A stretch of 64,000 bases of DNA, from assembly GCA_045593845.1 (NCBI GenBank), contig JAZNXK010000011.1, positions 11,111 through 75,110 of the forward strand, given 5' to 3'. Shown here piece by piece: positions 33,433-38,667 of this stretch. This DNA is from Alphaproteobacteria bacterium. GTDB lineage: Bacteria; Pseudomonadota; Alphaproteobacteria; RF32; CAG-239. The position numbers and the translations under genes are program-made. Position 1 is the stretch's first letter, and each line of letters opens with the position of its first letter. Below the pieces are notes generated by a model. The model worked only from the letters and a program-made list of their open reading frames with translations. It was not told the origin of the DNA and made no database searches.

Positions 33433-33906
33433 ATTGTTCCGTTTGTTAATGAGATTGAAAAGTTTTAAGAAAGTAGAATTTATTTATTTTGTATATCCTT
33501 TATAATTTAAAGTCAAATATTTAAAATTGAAAAAGTTTTTCACAGCGTGTTTTGCCAAATATAAATATTTAAAAAAGTTTTTGTTGTTTGTAGATAGCTG
33601 TTATTTTTGTGGATTATTTTTTATCTTCAGATTTATCAAGATGTTTATAATTTTGTATATAAAGTGTTAGTAATAATTTTTGGAAGTAAATAATTTCAAA
33701 TTTTTCAGGGAGTCTGTTGTGTAAATATTTTTGTTTTATTTTTTTTATAAAAATGAGTTATTAACATAATGCAAATATGTTTACAAAACTTATCAACCTG
33801 TTATTATGTTCTTGTATTAATAATGAAATAGGTTGATTTTTATTTAATTTTTGTATTTTTACTGTTTTTTATACACAAGTATTGTTAATAAGTTGGATAA
33901 AATAAT
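33433..33906. other. Candidate chromosomal replication origin (oriC)
   Basis: This 474-bp gap is very AT-rich and non-coding, and genes diverge from it (rho-mnmE-mnmG-rsmG-parAB leftward, coaE-dnaQ rightward). Near-consensus DnaA boxes are TGTGGATTA (33608..33616) and TTATACACA (33869..33877). Two-mismatch boxes lie at 33536, 33790 and 33892. Confidence 0.45.
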
Positions 33907-34491
33907 ATGAAATTGGTTGCTGTGACAGGTTCTATTGGATGCGGAAAGACTACAATATCAAGAATAATTAGAGATTGCGGCTATGTTGTTTTTGATGTTG
34001 ATGCTTGGGTGAGGAGATTATATTATAAAAAATCTTTTATTGCCAAGGTTATTGAAATTTTTCCAATGACTTGTGAAAATGGAGTTTTTAATAAAAGAAA
34101 ATTGAGAAATTGGGTTTTTAGTGATAATAAGGAACTTAAAAAATTAGAGGACTTAATACATCCCTTTTTGAGAAAATATTTGAAATCAGTTATAAATAAA
34201 TACAGTAAAAAACAAGATTGTTTTTTTATTGATGTTGCTTTGTTATATGAAATGAATTGGGATATATACTGTGATTTTATTGTTGTAGCGGATGTCGATT
34301 ATGAAACTCAAAAAAAGAGAGTTATGTTAAGAGATAATATATCGGCCGAAGATTTTGATAAGATTAATAATATTCAAATGAATAATGAAAAAAAGAAGAA
34401 TATGGCTGATTTTGTTATTAATACGGATAAGAAATTGAATTTGTTAAAACTTGATGTTATCAAAATGATAAATATGTGTGAGGAATTTTAA
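33907..34491 (+). CDS. coaE: Dephospho-CoA kinase
   Basis: P-loop VAVTGSIGCGKTT. 194 aa. Shows the conserved coaE-dnaQ linkage. Confidence 0.85.
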   Translation: MKLVAVTGSIGCGKTTISRIIRDCGYVVFDVDAWVRRLYYKKSFIAKVIEIFPMTCENGVFNKRKLRNWVFSDNKELKKLEDLIHPFLRKYLKSVINKYSKKQDCFFIDVALLYEMNWDIYCDFIVVADVDYETQKKRVMLRDNISAEDFDKINNIQMNNEKKKNMADFVINTDKKLNLLKLDVIKMINMCEEF

Positions 34492-34493
34492 TT

Positions 34494-35216
34494 ATGGTAA
34501 GGGAAATAGTTTTTGATACAGAGACAACAGGCCTTTCTGTTGAAAAAGGAGATAGATTGGTTGATATAGGAGCTGTGGAGTTGATAAATCATTTACCTAC
34601 TGGCAGGGAATATCATCAATATATAAATCCTGAAAGAAGTGTTCCTGCAGATGTTGTTGCCGTTCATGGTTTGACAGAAGAGTTTTTGAAGGATTATCCT
34701 ACTTTTGCAGAGATAGCTAAAGATTTTATAGATTTTGTCGGTGATGATGGGATTTTGGTTGCACATAATGCTCCTTTTGATATGAGTTTCTTAAATTATC
34801 AGCTTAAGGAATGTGGTTATGAGCCATATTCTGATGATAGAGTTATAGATACTTTGGAAATGGCAAGAAAAATGTTTCCAGGGGCAAGAAATAAGTTAGA
34901 TGCATTATGTAAAAGATTTAAAATTGATAATAGTAACAGAGTGTTGCACGGTGCTCTTATTGATGCTGATTTATTGGCAAAGGTATATCTTGAAATGCTG
35001 GGTGGTTATGAACCATCAATGATGTTGAATAGTTATCAGAAAGATAGTGCTCCTGTTTGTAATGAAAATTCAAAGATCATGAATGATAGATTTTTTCATG
35101 AAGCAAGAGTATATGTTTTGAGCGAAGAAGATGAGAAAAAACATCGTGAATTTTTGGAAACAAAAATAAAAAATCCTATATGGTTGTCAGATGAATTAAA
35201 CAGCTCCGATAATTGA
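34494..35216 (+). CDS. dnaQ: DNA polymerase III epsilon subunit (3'-5' exonuclease)
   Basis: ExoI motif IVFDTETTGL, ExoII LVAHNAPFDMSFL and ExoIII HGALIDADLLAKVY. Confidence 0.9.
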   Translation: MVREIVFDTETTGLSVEKGDRLVDIGAVELINHLPTGREYHQYINPERSVPADVVAVHGLTEEFLKDYPTFAEIAKDFIDFVGDDGILVAHNAPFDMSFLNYQLKECGYEPYSDDRVIDTLEMARKMFPGARNKLDALCKRFKIDNSNRVLHGALIDADLLAKVYLEMLGGYEPSMMLNSYQKDSAPVCNENSKIMNDRFFHEARVYVLSEEDEKKHREFLETKIKNPIWLSDELNSSDN

Positions 35217-36605
35217 AAAAGATGATATAGTGTCTCCCATGCCTACAAGAGTTTTTGGCTTGTTTATGATTATTGTGGGTGTGGCGATTATATAAAAATT
35301 CTTAAATGAGCAAATTCCTTTTTGGAGTAGTGTTTTTGTTTTTAGATAGGAACTTAGTTTTTCTAGCTCTATTAAAGAAATTTCAGAAACGGGTAAACCG
35401 CAGGATTTTGTAATATCTGATTTTTGTTTTAAGTATCCGATAGAAGCTTTGCTTGCCGCAGCAGTAGAAGCGAGAATCATACCGTTGCGAATTTTTGTGG
35501 GTGATATTGGATAATGTTTATCTTGAATGGTAATGTATAACCCAAACATATGAAGTTGGATACGCGGACATTTCAATTTTTGCTTTATTTTTAATATTGC
35601 CTTAAAAAGGTTTATGGAATCAGGATTTTTTTGACACAGATTATATAGTTTTTTGTTGTTTGTAACTTCAAGAATATCTATTGTTTCTCGATCATTTATA
35701 CCAACAGAATCAACAATACTTGCAAGATTTGTCAGAATGGCTTTTCTGATGATTTTGTCTTGCGTTGATGCAATTTCTAAATGAACGATGGATTGAGGAT
35801 TTCTTTCTTTCCAAGATGATATTATTTTTTTTGATGTTTTTATATGTTTTAATCCATGATTATGGTAGCTTAAAGCTTGGTAACCAGATAAGAAATAATA
35901 GTCTATATCATTTTTGCAGGTGTAATTTATAAAGTGTTTATCAAGCTTGAAATTGAAAAGCGGTGGGTCATAAGTAACGATAAAACGGTTGGATTTAGGG
36001 CATATAAAAGTTTTTCCTTCAATATTTATTGTATCATTTTTATCAAATTCTATTATCCAGTGGATTGATGAAGTTTTGTCTCTGTTTATAAGGGATGCTT
36101 GTTTTAAATTTCCTTTTTTATCAAAGGATAATAAGTTCTTGTTTGAAAAAAATTGATTTGCCTGTTCTTGTGTTAAAGCATTACTGTGTACTATGACTTT
36201 TTTGATATTTGCTAGAGAAATTGTGTTGGCAACAATGCCTGCTTGTCCACCTATTTGAATTTTTTTTGTGCCGATGTTTGATAACATCCAATTGAATATT
36301 TTTATCTTATCTGAAGTCCATTCTTCAGCTATGCCTTTTGTAAAACAAAGGAAAATGCCTTTGATAAAGTCACTGACATTGTTTATGTTTTTATGGTCAA
36401 TTTTTTGGAGTTTCGCCAGAGGCAGTTTTTCTTGTTTTATAAGTTCTAAAATTTGATTTCCTGAAATCTTAACAACCGAATCGATACAGGAATTAAAAGC
36501 GCAGGCAACACTTTTAATTTTTGACATTTTATCAAGAGTTTCAGGAGCTTCCTGATAAAAATTATTCCATATCAGTTGGGTTTTCGTCGCTGTCGTTTCT
36601 TGCAT
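35196..36605 (-). CDS. ADP-dependent sugar kinase family protein (ADP-GK/ADP-PFK, ribokinase-like superfamily)
   Basis: Family motifs recognised by eye: AFNSCIDSV (NxxxD), IGGQAGIVAN, SNRFI, LSGYQAL, VHLEIAS, SVGINDRE and C-terminal VGMGDTISS. Confidence 0.75.
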   Translation of the reverse strand: MQETTATKTQLIWNNFYQEAPETLDKMSKIKSVACAFNSCIDSVVKISGNQILELIKQEKLPLAKLQKIDHKNINNVSDFIKGIFLCFTKGIAEEWTSDKIKIFNWMLSNIGTKKIQIGGQAGIVANTISLANIKKVIVHSNALTQEQANQFFSNKNLLSFDKKGNLKQASLINRDKTSSIHWIIEFDKNDTINIEGKTFICPKSNRFIVTYDPPLFNFKLDKHFINYTCKNDIDYYFLSGYQALSYHNHGLKHIKTSKKIISSWKERNPQSIVHLEIASTQDKIIRKAILTNLASIVDSVGINDRETIDILEVTNNKKLYNLCQKNPDSINLFKAILKIKQKLKCPRIQLHMFGLYITIQDKHYPISPTKIRNGMILASTAAASKASIGYLKQKSDITKSCGLPVSEISLIELEKLSSYLKTKTLLQKGICSFKNFYIIATPTIIINKPKTLVGMGDTISSFSIIGAV

Positions 36606-37515
36606 TTTCTACCTTCATTATTTGTAGGGCGTTAGCAATTATATTTGATAGTGATTTATAAAAAGTCAGCTGGTTTTTTGTTTGTTGATACCAGAACTTA
36701 ATATTTTGATTTTCAAGAATTTCTTTTTGATTTTCAATCTCTTTTATTGCTGAATTAAAGTCATTATTATTTACAAACGACCTAATTTTTTCTAAAAACT
36801 CAGTTTTATCATATACTTGAGCACTGTTTTTATCATTAATTGTTGAAATTTTTACATATTCATTAACCTTGGAGGTTATGCGTTTTTTCCAATCTTTTTC
36901 TATAACAGGCTTGGTTTCTTCCGTATAAATTTTATTGAAACTGTCAATTAATGATTTGTCGGAAATAAAATTTATTGAGCAGTGAGAATATATAAAATCA
37001 ACATCTTTGGAAATGGAGCTTATGTTGTCAGCTAATATTTTCAGTGCTTCTGCTTCCATTTCGCAGGTTTGTCCGTGTAAAATTGTGTCTTTTATCAGCA
37101 TGGCTGAAGTTAATAATAAAGCACCGTTATTAGATGTTTTGGCGAGTTTTTGGGTCTGGTTTTCAAGATTGCGAAGTTGATTGTTTATTGCAAGTATCTC
37201 GCTCGCATTTACTTTTGATGCATTGAAATGATCAACATTTTTTTGCAACAAATCAAATTTTTCTCGTTCGTTGAGTAGTGCGTTTGAGAGAGTGTCAATG
37301 TTGCGACTCAAAATTACAATTTTGTTTTTCAAATTTTCTTGGTCATCAGAAATTCGAGATGAAGTATTTATTTGTTTAGTTATAATTTCGGGTTTATACC
37401 AAAAGAAAAATAGTGTAATTATAACTGCTGTAAAGAGAATAAATTCAAAAGTTTTGAATAAATATATCAAAATTTTGCTTGATTTGGAAGTATTTGATGA
37501 TTTATTTTTAACCAT
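36562..37515 (-). CDS. Coiled-coil membrane protein, candidate alphaproteobacterial Mic60 (mitofilin-domain) homologue
   Basis: One N-terminal TM helix (ILIYLFKTFEFILFTAVIITLFFFW) and a long heptad-rich middle region. The C-terminal block is FVNNNDFNSAIKEIENQ...NIKFWYQQTKNQL.F.KSLSNI, resembling the mitofilin-domain pattern. It is divergent from tsaD. Confidence 0.4.
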   Translation of the reverse strand: MVKNKSSNTSKSSKILIYLFKTFEFILFTAVIITLFFFWYKPEIITKQINTSSRISDDQENLKNKIVILSRNIDTLSNALLNEREKFDLLQKNVDHFNASKVNASEILAINNQLRNLENQTQKLAKTSNNGALLLTSAMLIKDTILHGQTCEMEAEALKILADNISSISKDVDFIYSHCSINFISDKSLIDSFNKIYTEETKPVIEKDWKKRITSKVNEYVKISTINDKNSAQVYDKTEFLEKIRSFVNNNDFNSAIKEIENQKEILENQNIKFWYQQTKNQLTFYKSLSNIIANALQIMKVENARNDSDENPTDME

Positions 37516-37563
37516 GTTTATTTTCCTTTGTAAAAAACTTTTATTGTTTTATTATGAAGGTTA

Positions 37564-38667
37564 ATGGTTAAAATTTTATCAAAAGAAAAAGTTATGATTG
37601 TTTTAGGAATAGAAAGTAGTTGTGATGAGACAGCGGCGGCAATAGTGAATGATAAAAAAGAAATTTTATCTGAAGTCGTTTTATCTCAAGAGGAACATAA
37701 AGTTTTTGGCGGGGTTGTGCCGGAAATTGCGGCAAGATCACATTTGGATCATATTGATGACATAATTGCTCAAACATTTGAACGAGCAAAAATTAGTATG
37801 AATGATATTGATGCGGTTGCTGCAGCATCAGGCCCTGGATTGATAGGAGGGGTTGTTGTTGGTGTTATGGCCGCCAAGGCCATGGCTTTAGCTTTGAACA
37901 AGCCTTTTATTGCCGTAAATCATTTGGAAGGGCATGCGTTGGTTTCGAGACTTACTAATGATGTTAATTATCCCTATTTGTTATTATTGGTATCCGGCGG
38001 ACATTGTCAAATTTTGGTGGTCAAAGGTCCTGGTGATTATCAGAGACTGGGAACAACGATTGATGATGCGGCAGGAGAAGCGTTTGATAAAGTTGCAAAA
38101 ATGCTAAAGCTAGGTTATCCGGGGGGACCTATGGTGGAAAAAATGGCTGCAATAGGTGATGAAAACAGGTTTTGCTTACCCCATCCGTTAAAGGGTTCAG
38201 GCGATTGTAATCTGTCATTTTCAGGATTAAAGACTGCTGTCAGAAAAATTATCGAATCGTACGGAGATAATAATATTGAGGAGGTTGTTTTGCCCAGAAA
38301 AGATGTCGCAGATATTTGCGCGTGTTTCCAAAAAACAGCTTGCGAATGTTTGTTGGATAAACTTGAAATGGCAATAAATTATTTTAAGAAAAATTATCCT
38401 GAAGGAAAAGACGTTGTTGTTGCCGGTGGTGTGGCGGCAAATGTTTATTTGCGCGAAAAAATGCAAAATTTGGCAAGCAAAAAAGGATTGTTTTTTGCAG
38501 CTCCGCCGTTGCGGTTGTGCACAGATAATGGAGTTATGATTGCATGGGCAGGGTTGGAAAGATTGCAAAAGGGCTTTATTGATGATTTGGACTTTAAGCC
38601 CAGGCCGAGATGGCCTTTGGATTTTGAGGCGCCAAAGGCTGCCGGAGCAGGAGGAGTAAAAGCATGA
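37564..38667 (+). CDS. tsaD: tRNA t6A37 N6-threonylcarbamoyltransferase TsaD
   Basis: Motifs LGIESSCDETA, NHLEGH and SGGH. The more likely start is MIVLGIE at 37594. Confidence 0.95.
   Translation: MVKILSKEKVMIVLGIESSCDETAAAIVNDKKEILSEVVLSQEEHKVFGGVVPEIAARSHLDHIDDIIAQTFERAKISMNDIDAVAAASGPGLIGGVVVGVMAAKAMALALNKPFIAVNHLEGHALVSRLTNDVNYPYLLLLVSGGHCQILVVKGPGDYQRLGTTIDDAAGEAFDKVAKMLKLGYPGGPMVEKMAAIGDENRFCLPHPLKGSGDCNLSFSGLKTAVRKIIESYGDNNIEEVVLPRKDVADICACFQKTACECLLDKLEMAINYFKKNYPEGKDVVVAGGVAANVYLREKMQNLASKKGLFFAAPPLRLCTDNGVMIAWAGLERLQKGFIDDLDFKPRPRWPLDFEAPKAAGAGGVKA

Follow-up and report, generated by a model that had tools for sequence, protein, structure and literature searches.

Introduction

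ADP-dependent glucokinases have been studied almost solely in hyperthermophilic archaea and in animals, and our literature search found no characterised bacterial enzyme. Structures are available for the Thermococcales glucokinases (EC 2.7.1.147) of Pyrococcus furiosus (1UA4), P. horikoshii (1L2L, 5O0I, 5O0J) and Thermococcus litoralis (1GC5, 4B8S), for the mouse enzyme ADPGK (5CCF, 5CK7) and for AncMsPFK (6C8Z, 6XIO), a reconstructed ancestor of the Methanosarcinales ADP-dependent phosphofructokinases (PFK) and glucokinases (GK). Here we analyse a gene for a 469-residue member of this family, found on the minus strand of a 64,000-nucleotide stretch of DNA from an "Alphaproteobacteria bacterium" (GenBank assembly GCA_045593845.1, contig JAZNXK010000011.1, positions 11,111 to 75,110); this whole stretch is referred to below as the window. 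The enzyme is probably a glucose-specific ADP-dependent glucokinase that serves the cell as its sole hexokinase, a reading drawn from its sequence, its predicted structure and its genomic setting.

The residues that distinguish the sugar specificities of the family have been defined on AncMsPFK, the structure of which was solved with fructose-6-phosphate (F6P) (Munoz et al., PMC7948494). In that work Lys179, Asn181 and Arg212 are conserved solely in ADP-PFKs and bifunctional enzymes, and the substitutions K179A, N181A and R212A raise the Km for F6P 200- to 1000-fold. Glu90, on the other hand, is conserved solely in glucokinases and bifunctional enzymes, specific glucokinases have a histidine at the position of Asn181, and Asp471 is the catalytic base. 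In a separate study eukaryotic ADPGK was placed next to Asgard sequences (PMC11976288).

Results

Family membership and fold

35196-36605, minus strand: coding sequence of the 469-residue kinase, a predicted ADP-dependent glucokinase (EC 2.7.1.147), defined by an ATG-to-stop open reading frame (ORF), the PF04587 match, PDB matches and AlphaFold2/Foldseek results.

The gene is present in single copy in a 1.41-Mb genome of 99.9% completeness. A first-pass annotation of the same DNA, made by a model from the letters alone, had assigned the ORF to the ADP-dependent glucokinase/phosphofructokinase family on the strength of a series of motifs, all of which are found in the translated protein: AFNSCIDSV (with Asn38 and Asp42), GGQAGIVAN (119-127), NRFI (206-209), SGYQ (near 240), HLEIAS (with His275 and Glu277), SVGINDRE (about 300-307) and GMGDTISS (with Gly455 to Asp458). 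The family assignment is borne out at every level. The sole Pfam hit of the protein is PF04587 (ADP_PFK_GK), which it matches at 231.8 bits (E 1.6e-68) against a gathering cut-off of 27, covering positions 2-427 of the 430 in the profile, and a search of the whole genome gives the same result as that of the window. No PfkB or ribokinase family outscores PF04587, and the catalytic aspartate of the GxGD motif is intact.

A sequence search of the PDB with the kinase returns ADP-dependent sugar kinases only, led by AncMsPFK (6c8z, 221 bits) and followed by P. furiosus GK (1ua4, 155 bits), P. horikoshii PFK (1u2x, 118 bits) and mouse ADPGK (5ccf, 24.8 bits). An AlphaFold2 model, calculated from a 40-sequence alignment, has a mean predicted local distance difference test score (pLDDT) of 94.4 and a predicted template modelling score (pTM) of 0.91. 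It shows the two-domain, ribokinase-like fold of the family, with a large Rossmann-like domain and a small alpha/beta lid. When this model is compared with the PDB by Foldseek the top 22 matches are all ADP-dependent sugar kinases, after which adenosine kinases and ribokinases appear at a template modelling (TM) score of about 0.4. The closed glucokinase structures match with TM scores of 0.86-0.89 (T. litoralis GK, 4b8s, 0.89; P. furiosus GK, 1ua4, 0.86), and 6xio matches at 0.87. The 469-residue protein is a genuine, full-length member of the ADP-dependent sugar kinase family and, by analogy with that family, the phosphoryl donor is most likely ADP rather than ATP.

Active-site residues and subtype

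Residues were assigned in AncMsPFK numbering from an HMMER alignment and a 143-sequence MAFFT alignment, and their conservation was assessed over 117 close homologues, each of at least 440 residues. The sites concerned, all on the minus strand, are as follows.

36480-36494, minus strand: Asn38-Ser-Cys40-Ile-Asp42, the N-x-N-x-D sugar-binding motif (AncMsPFK Asn32/Asn34/Asp36), from alignment to 6c8z and 1ua4; Asn38 and Asp42 invariant in 117/117 homologues.
36321-36323, minus strand: Glu95 (AncMsPFK Glu90), the glucose-binding glutamate, from the alignments, its role taken from PMC7948494.
36243-36251, minus strand: Gly119-Gly120-Gln121 of GGQAGI, the sugar-contacting loop (AncMsPFK Gly114/Gly115/Gln116), from the alignments.
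36060-36068, minus strand: Ser180-Ile-His182, with serine in place of the F6P-binding Lys179 and histidine in place of Asn181, the glucokinase signature, from the alignments and PMC7948494.
35979-35990, minus strand: Asn206-Arg207-Phe-Ile209, the NRxI motif, Arg207 (AncMsPFK Arg206) being the family-wide arginine that contacts the nucleotide phosphate; Asn206, Arg207 and Ile209 invariant.
35967-35969, minus strand: Asp213, at the position of the F6P-binding Arg212; aspartate in 117/117 homologues and also in P. furiosus GK.
35775-35783, minus strand: His275-Leu-Glu277, the HxE motif, invariant in the 117 homologues, AncMsPFK and P. furiosus GK.
35232-35243, minus strand: Gly455-Met-Gly-Asp458, the GxGD motif, with Asp458 as catalytic base (AncMsPFK Asp471); the aspartate is invariant in the 117 homologues and in the 40-sequence alignment.

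The HxE motif of ADP-dependent sugar kinases stands in for the NXXE motif of ribokinases in the binding of Mg and phosphate. From AncMsPFK to the window kinase the six diagnostic columns read Glu90 to Glu95, Lys179 to Ser180, Asn181 to His182, Arg206 to Arg207, Arg212 to Asp213 and Asp471 to Asp458; P. furiosus GK has Glu, Cys, His, Arg, Asp and Asp in the same columns. The glutamate and histidine expected of a glucokinase are thus both present and the F6P-phosphate ligands Lys179 and Arg212 are both absent, the PFK/bifunctional triad being represented by Ser, His and Asp. This pattern is not peculiar to the window, since Asn38, Asp42, Glu95, Gln121, His182, Arg207, Asp213, His275, Glu277 and Asp458 are kept in 117/117 homologues, none of which has lysine or arginine at positions 180 or 213. 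Two positions near the sugar are variable. Residue 40 is asparagine in 92/117 homologues and cysteine in 25/117, the latter forming one sub-clade that includes the window kinase (codon 36486-36488), and in AncMsPFK the equivalent asparagine contacts the F6P phosphate; residue 243, near the sugar pocket, is either Gln or His.

The curated NCBIfam models give no direct call. The ADP-PFK model TIGR02045 has the top NCBIfam score, 203 bits, against a cut-off of 408, and the two ADP-GK equivalogs also fall below theirs (NF010642, 192.9 < 387; NF010641, 186.2 < 554). As all of these scores lie at 186-203 bits, far below the cut-offs, the subtype call rests on signature residues and phylogeny. By these the kinase is filed as GK-like, outside the curated equivalog groups. 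The first-pass label of "glucokinase/phosphofructokinase" therefore stands as to family and is narrowed to the glucokinase type, with the GK residues present and the three F6P residues missing.

Metabolic context of the genome

The genome was surveyed by tblastn with Escherichia coli K-12 proteins and by hidden Markov model (HMM) scans. It encodes pgi (54% identity), a class II-B aldolase, tpiA, gapA (74% identity), pgk, gpmM (cofactor-independent phosphoglycerate mutase, iPGM), eno, pykA and pyruvate phosphate dikinase (PPDK), together with glgP, a glgB-glgX-malQ cluster (contig C24, 27386-33780), a long GlgA-like synthase and phosphoglucomutase. A PfkA-type PFK, located outside the window on contig C13 (1931-2905), scores 297 bits against PF00365 and exceeds the cut-off of the NCBIfam ATP-PFK subfamily model (340 > 253).

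Other means of phosphorylating glucose were not found. The genome search detected no Glk, ROK, PfkB-family kinase, BadF/BadG-type kinase or hexokinase; a PfkB-family kinase is present in 14/14 control genomes, compared with none detected here. The phosphotransferase system (PTS) in the genome is of the regulatory PtsP/NPr type only. The absence of Glk, ROK, PfkB, hexokinase, BadF and a sugar PTS means that the kinase is best read as the sole hexose kinase, and it is probably the only one that the cell has. The first-pass annotation had raised the absence of ATP-dependent glk and pfk genes as a point to check; this is correct for Glk and ROK but not for PFK, an ATP-type PfkA being present. The same search found no zwf, edd, eda, ptsG, crr, galK, galT, galM, fbp or glpX; genes of the oxidative pentose-phosphate and Entner-Doudoroff pathways were not detected in the genome, nor were fructose-1,6-bisphosphatases (FBPases) of classes I, II, III and V. 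From its gene content the organism looks incapable of gluconeogenesis and dependent on hexoses.

Some features of the accompanying enzymes are unusual. PfkA combines a GGDG motif (Gly at E. coli position 104, as in the ATP type) with PKTIDND (Lys at 124, as in the pyrophosphate (PPi) type), and passes the subfamily-level ATP-PFK model only. In many genomes of the order its gene lies within 1-2 kb of a contig end, and something adjacent to it seems to break assemblies. The GlgA-like protein (contig C11, 162347-163684, beyond the window end) is unusually long, at about 680-695 residues, with a good match to GlgA in its C-terminal third only. GlgC was not found in the genome, the sole hit being an RfbA-like nucleotidyltransferase.

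Occurrence of the kinase and of other sugar kinases

Homologues of the kinase number 874 in a large protein database, and 141 species representatives in a genome collection encode one. Most of the latter are "Alphaproteobacteria bacterium" metagenome-assembled genomes (MAGs) from gut, rumen and caecum, the hosts being deer, buffalo, yak, goat, chicken, mouse and human; named carriers include Azospirillum sp. 51_20, Proteobacteria bacterium CAG:495, Acetobacter sp. 46_36 and Candidatus Scatocola. We take these gut and rumen carriers to be the GTDB order RF32. Within the window's order the kinase is found in 157/201 sampled genomes and 19/22 genera. In a class-wide sample it occurs in only 5/301 Alphaproteobacteria, three of them outside the order, a rarity that the first-pass annotation had anticipated. 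That annotation had further remarked that ADP-driven phosphorylation would suit an energy-limited or intracellular lifestyle; nothing in our analysis shows an intracellular one, the relatives having been recovered from metagenomes of gut and rumen.

Four families, the ADP-kinase, PfkA, Glk and ROK, were sought in the same 201 genomes. A PfkA-type PFK is found in 193/201, whether the ADP-kinase is present or absent. Among the genomes that lack the ADP-kinase, 42/44 carry a full-length ROK or a strong Glk, and the remaining two, which have neither, are incomplete MAGs. Among those that possess it, 45/157 have a full-length ROK or Glk (naive Fisher p = 1.6e-16 for the difference from 42/44), 28/157 have a weak, split ROK-like match and 84/157 have nothing else. 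The ADP-kinase has been lost in six genera (labelled g1, g9, g17, g18, g19 and g21 here), in each of which an alternative kinase is present, and Glk accompanies the loss in three independent lineages. These losses track ROK and Glk rather than PFK, as would be expected if it is a glucokinase that has undergone non-orthologous displacement.

The weak ROK-like matches all come from one genus. In all 28 sampled genomes of this genus (g13; for example G049:C2:82405-83181) a short ROK-like ORF of 265-300 residues scores 60-105 bits, the match being split into two pieces in 26/28. It is a divergent relative of ROK and occurs alongside the ADP-kinase.

Phylogeny

An exhaustive HMMER search recovered only 515 members of the PF04587 family (E <= 0.001) among 1.84 billion representatives clustered at 50% identity. 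A first tree was made from the best 150 sequences plus anchors, giving 143 rows. In this tree the sequences with the PFK signature, AncMsPFK included, form one clade (52/143 rows, SH-aLRT 95), and the window kinase falls outside it. A more careful tree of 93 rows was calculated in IQ-TREE (LG+C20+F+G4 PMSF), with a distinct type of bacterial sequence (Bacillota) as its arbitrary root; eukaryotic sequences were not among its rows. Here the alphaproteobacterial kinases form a clade with support 100/99, contained in an all-bacterial clade of 33 rows (100/99) that also holds sequences from Bacteroidales/Marinilabiliales, Myxococcota and Opitutales. The sister of this bacterial clade is a Heimdallarchaeota clade (clade A, 98/87), the next group out is a second Asgard clade (Heimdallarchaeota/Promethearchaeati, 99/85), and beyond that are two single sequences, P0131 and the Promethearchaeota sequence P0139. 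A split with support 99/90 separates the window lineage, together with the Asgard and other GK-signature sequences, from the whole PFK clade; the Thermococcales glucokinases lie on the same side of this split as the PFK clade.

That the bacterial clade is nested among Asgard sequences of GK type suggests that bacteria received the gene from an Asgard-like archaeon, a direction that rests on this nesting in an arbitrarily rooted tree. A eukaryotic donor, which the first-pass annotation had offered as one possibility, is not supported by these data and is rejected on similarity. Mouse ADPGK scores only 25 bits, with a TM score of 0.64, compared with 155-221 bits and 0.86-0.89 for the archaeal enzymes, and the nearest non-bacterial sequences are from Heimdallarchaeota.

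A separate bacterial branch of PF04587 (P0144, P0146, P0169, P0178, P0204 and locus L222) has H-V-D in place of N-x-N-x-D and Thr for the Gln of GGQ, with Ala, His and Asn at 179, 181 and 212; one member is named Bacillota. This branch may represent a third specificity class of the family. The idea that this outgroup type ("HVD-T") is eukaryote-like was considered and rejected, as it is another bacterial (Bacillota) group.

Local anatomy, synteny and age of the gene

Three further features adjoin or overlap the kinase gene.

34494-35216, plus strand: dnaQ (DNA polymerase III epsilon, RNase_T domain), convergent with the kinase gene and overlapping its 3' end by 21 nt; context only.
36562-37515, minus strand: p317, a gene for a 317-residue protein with an N-terminal transmembrane segment and a coiled coil, upstream of the kinase gene and co-oriented with it, overlapping the kinase start by 44 nt.
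36609-36615, minus strand: the Shine-Dalgarno-like sequence AAGGTAG, 3 nt upstream of the kinase ATG (36605) and within the last p317 codons, read from the sequence.

No terminator-like sites were found in 34400-37800, and promoter-like sites in the same interval are not above chance. Given these two results and the 44-nt overlap, the kinase is probably co-transcribed with p317. The p317 product had been called Mic60-like in the first-pass annotation, a label that derives from architecture and position alone: an HMM scan of the protein and 20 orthologues gave no Mitofilin or other Pfam match, and a profile of the family found nothing meaningful in the PDB. p317 represents a conserved family, and its ORF was recovered at 54 loci. 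Most of the alphaproteobacterial loci compared have it on the upstream side of the kinase, either immediately adjacent or separated by a single gene (for example L010:3456-4487), with tsaD divergent on its other side.

The order nth-tsaD, p317, often a tetratricopeptide repeat (TPR)/zinc-ribbon gene, and kinase is kept in most of these loci, down to 45% kinase identity, whereas the downstream dnaQ-coaE-rho arrangement is shared with the closest relatives only. The order-wide presence of the kinase and this conserved synteny identify it as an old, vertically inherited core gene rather than a recent insertion. It was acquired long ago by an ancestor of the gut/rumen alphaproteobacterial order and has been inherited vertically since. 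The horizontal acquisition envisaged in the first-pass annotation thus stands as regards an ultimately archaeal origin, which fits the tree, but not as a gene recently "wedged" into its present place, given its presence in 157/201 genomes.

The gene that intervenes between p317 and the kinase in many relatives (L010:4480-5910; also L009-L021, L023, L030 and others) encodes 476 residues with weak TPR and C-terminal zinc-ribbon (LapB-like) matches, below cut-off, and is absent from the window. G+C content within the window is lowest at 34-38 kb (30-31%), and it is likewise low in the housekeeping neighbours dnaQ and coaE. The dnaQ neighbour named in the first-pass annotation is confirmed. For the putative replication origin nearby the only support is the cumulative GC skew, which is lowest near 30-34 kb; one-mismatch DnaA boxes are at chance level across the window (25 against 19.5 expected, not significant). 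An origin near 30-34 kb is plausible from the skew minimum. The AT-rich gap between rho and coaE (33433-33906) contains two one-mismatch DnaA boxes, at 33608 and 33869.

Discussion

Proposed function

We propose that the kinase catalyses the reaction ADP + D-glucose -> AMP + glucose-6-phosphate. By homology to the solved enzymes, glucose would be held by Asn38, Asp42, Glu95, Gly119-Gln121 and His182 under the closing lid domain, Asp458 of the GMGD motif would act as catalytic base, and Mg-ADP and the transferred phosphate would be handled by His275, Glu277 and Arg207. The substrate would be free glucose, either imported or released by MalQ in the breakdown of glycogen and maltodextrin. The glucose-6-phosphate produced would then enter an ordinary bacterial Embden-Meyerhof pathway consisting of Pgi, ATP-type PfkA, class II aldolase, Tpi, Gap, Pgk, iPGM, Eno and Pyk or PPDK. 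In evolutionary terms the gene would represent an old acquisition by an ancestor of the order, followed by vertical descent and by loss chiefly in genomes that have a ROK or Glk glucokinase.

Several observations weigh against this proposal. The literature search found no biochemical data for bacterial or Asgard members of the kinase's clade, and no paper on an ADP-dependent kinase in RF32-type Alphaproteobacteria. Calibration of the GK signature is limited to Thermococcales enzymes and to mutants of a single reconstructed ancestor, the ADP-GK equivalogs score below cut-off, and Cys40 replaces the middle asparagine of N-x-N-x-D. The best PDB sequence match is a PFK ancestor (221 bits, compared with 155 for P. 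furiosus GK), which we attribute to the short branch of a reconstructed ancestor. A glucose transporter was not identified in the genome. As for the distribution, the inverse association between the ADP-kinase and ROK/Glk is uncorrected for phylogeny, with one genus (g2) supplying most of the genomes that lack the ADP-kinase; 45 genomes carry the ADP-kinase together with ROK or Glk; and the ROK proteins of the order may be not glucokinases but possibly of NagK type. Finally, the ADP-kinase is found in 8/8 genomes without detectable PfkA. This is not significant (0.78^8 = 0.14), although it is compatible with a PFK side-activity. The eight PfkA absences, spread over seven genera, are probably assembly gaps, given how often the gene lies close to a contig end.

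Alternative explanations

Could the enzyme be an ADP-dependent PFK, or a bifunctional PFK/GK of the kind that occurs in Methanococcales and Methanosarcinales, so that ADP drives the third step of glycolysis instead? The top PDB match to the Methanosarcinales ADP-PFK ancestor 6c8z, the leading position of TIGR02045 among the NCBIfam scores, the conservation of Glu95 in bifunctional enzymes as well, and the ADP-kinase in all eight PfkA-less genomes would all be consistent with this. We nevertheless consider it improbable. The three residues whose mutation so strongly impairs F6P binding in AncMsPFK (PMC7948494) are replaced in the window kinase and in all 117 homologues (K179 to S, N181 to H, R212 to D), the window kinase lies outside the clade that carries the PFK signature, and the TIGR02045 score is half of its cut-off. 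In addition, an ATP-type PfkA is already present in this genome and in 193/201 genomes of the order, and loss of the ADP-kinase follows the presence of a glucokinase, not that of a PFK. An equally small chance is given to an ADP-dependent kinase for some other gut hexose or amino sugar, such as mannose, glucosamine, fructose or N-acetylglucosamine, with glucose at most a side substrate. Thermococcales ADP-GKs have minor activity on 2-deoxyglucose, mannose and glucosamine; no enzyme has been characterised from the kinase's own clade or its Asgard sister clades; the Asn to Cys change at 40 and the Gln/His variation at 243 are near the sugar pocket; and ROK is also present in many genomes, so that substrates may be divided between the two. 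Set against these points, every glucose-contacting residue of the solved glucokinases is kept (Asn38, Asp42, Glu95, Gly119-Gln121, His182 and Asp458), the genome has no other route for glucose phosphorylation and yet has MalQ and a full glycolysis from glucose-6-phosphate, and loss of the kinase coincides with a glucose-specific Glk in three independent lineages.

The history of the gene also admits a rival, namely that this strain acquired it recently by horizontal transfer, either from a eukaryotic host or directly from an archaeon, with insertion between dnaQ and the adjacent gene near the origin. The rarity of the family in Alphaproteobacteria outside the order and the low G+C content (30-31%) at 34-38 kb might be taken to indicate this, but the same low G+C is seen for the housekeeping genes dnaQ and coaE, the kinase is present in 157/201 genomes and 19/22 genera, the nth-tsaD-p317 synteny is kept to 45% protein identity, the alphaproteobacterial sequences form a single clade (100/99), and mouse ADPGK is the most distant of the solved relatives. 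We regard recent acquisition as scarcely credible. At the other extreme, a more sweeping view extends the glucokinase reading from this cell to its relatives: the whole gut/rumen alphaproteobacterial order would begin glycolysis with an Asgard-derived ADP-dependent glucokinase as the only hexose kinase, which would make its Embden-Meyerhof pathway a hybrid and in part an "archaeal" one. Neither ROK nor Glk is present in at least 84 of the 201 genomes. We put this forward tentatively, as something that may well prove too broad. If it were true, the first glycolytic step in these mesophilic bacteria would spend ADP rather than ATP, and the AMP formed could be recycled either through adenylate kinase or directly through PPDK (AMP + PPi + phosphoenolpyruvate (PEP) -> ATP + Pi + pyruvate). 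As FBPases of classes I, II, III and V were not detected, the kinase would then be the obligatory gate for all cellular hexose phosphate.

Significance

The family, its fold and its likely activity are already known, and relatives are publicly annotated, some of the bacterial homologues being named "ADP-dependent glucokinase/phosphofructokinase" by NCBI. The gene is a sound, if rather unremarkable, addition to a known family, and its description refines and extends existing knowledge without overturning it. What the kinase and its approximately 870 relatives add is a mesophilic bacterial clade, common in the guts of humans, livestock and wild ruminants, that keeps such an enzyme as a core gene and apparently as the sole entry of glucose into glycolysis. 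Metabolic reconstructions from MAGs that check only Glk, ROK and PTS would wrongly call these bacteria incapable of using glucose. The position of the bacterial clade beside Heimdallarchaeota homologues suggests, moreover, that an enzyme of central metabolism passed from Asgard archaea to bacteria.

Comparison with known systems

Of the solved enzymes, eukaryotic ADPGK shares the family, the fold and the proposed glucose specificity of the window kinase but is its most distant relative (mouse enzyme, 25 bits, 15% identity, TM score 0.64). The homologues from Bacteroidales/Marinilabiliales, Myxococcota and Opitutales MAGs belong to the same bacterial clade and have the same signature, the Bacteroidota loci being 46-48% identical. 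The Bacteroidales loci share no synteny with the window, their neighbours being unrelated (DUF1287, CNNM/CBS and others) and giving no functional clue. The nearest non-bacterial relatives, from Heimdallarchaeota and Promethearchaeati (loci L096-L116 and L152-L160), have the same GK-type residues at 27-33% identity, in archaeal hosts.

AncMsPFK and the extant Methanosarcinales enzymes give the top PDB score, with about 30% identity, the same fold and motifs, and Glu90 kept. AncMsPFK prefers F6P through Lys179, Asn181 and Arg212, however, where the window kinase has Ser, His and Asp, and the two stand on opposite sides of the 99/90 split. In active-site terms the closer comparison is with the Thermococcales glucokinases. 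These belong to the same Pfam family and have the same two-domain fold, they share the catalytic motifs NxxxD, GGQ, NRxI, HxE and GxGD with the window kinase, and they share its signature of Glu at 90, His at 181, no Lys at 179 and Asp at 212. The differences are in sequence and setting. The window kinase is only 22-28% identical to them, lies on another branch of the tree and scores far under the NCBIfam equivalog cut-offs, and it has Cys for the middle Asn of N-x-N-x-D. Whereas the Thermococcales enzymes come from hyperthermophilic archaea, it comes from a mesophilic gut bacterium, in which it is paired not with an ADP-PFK but with an ATP-type PfkA.

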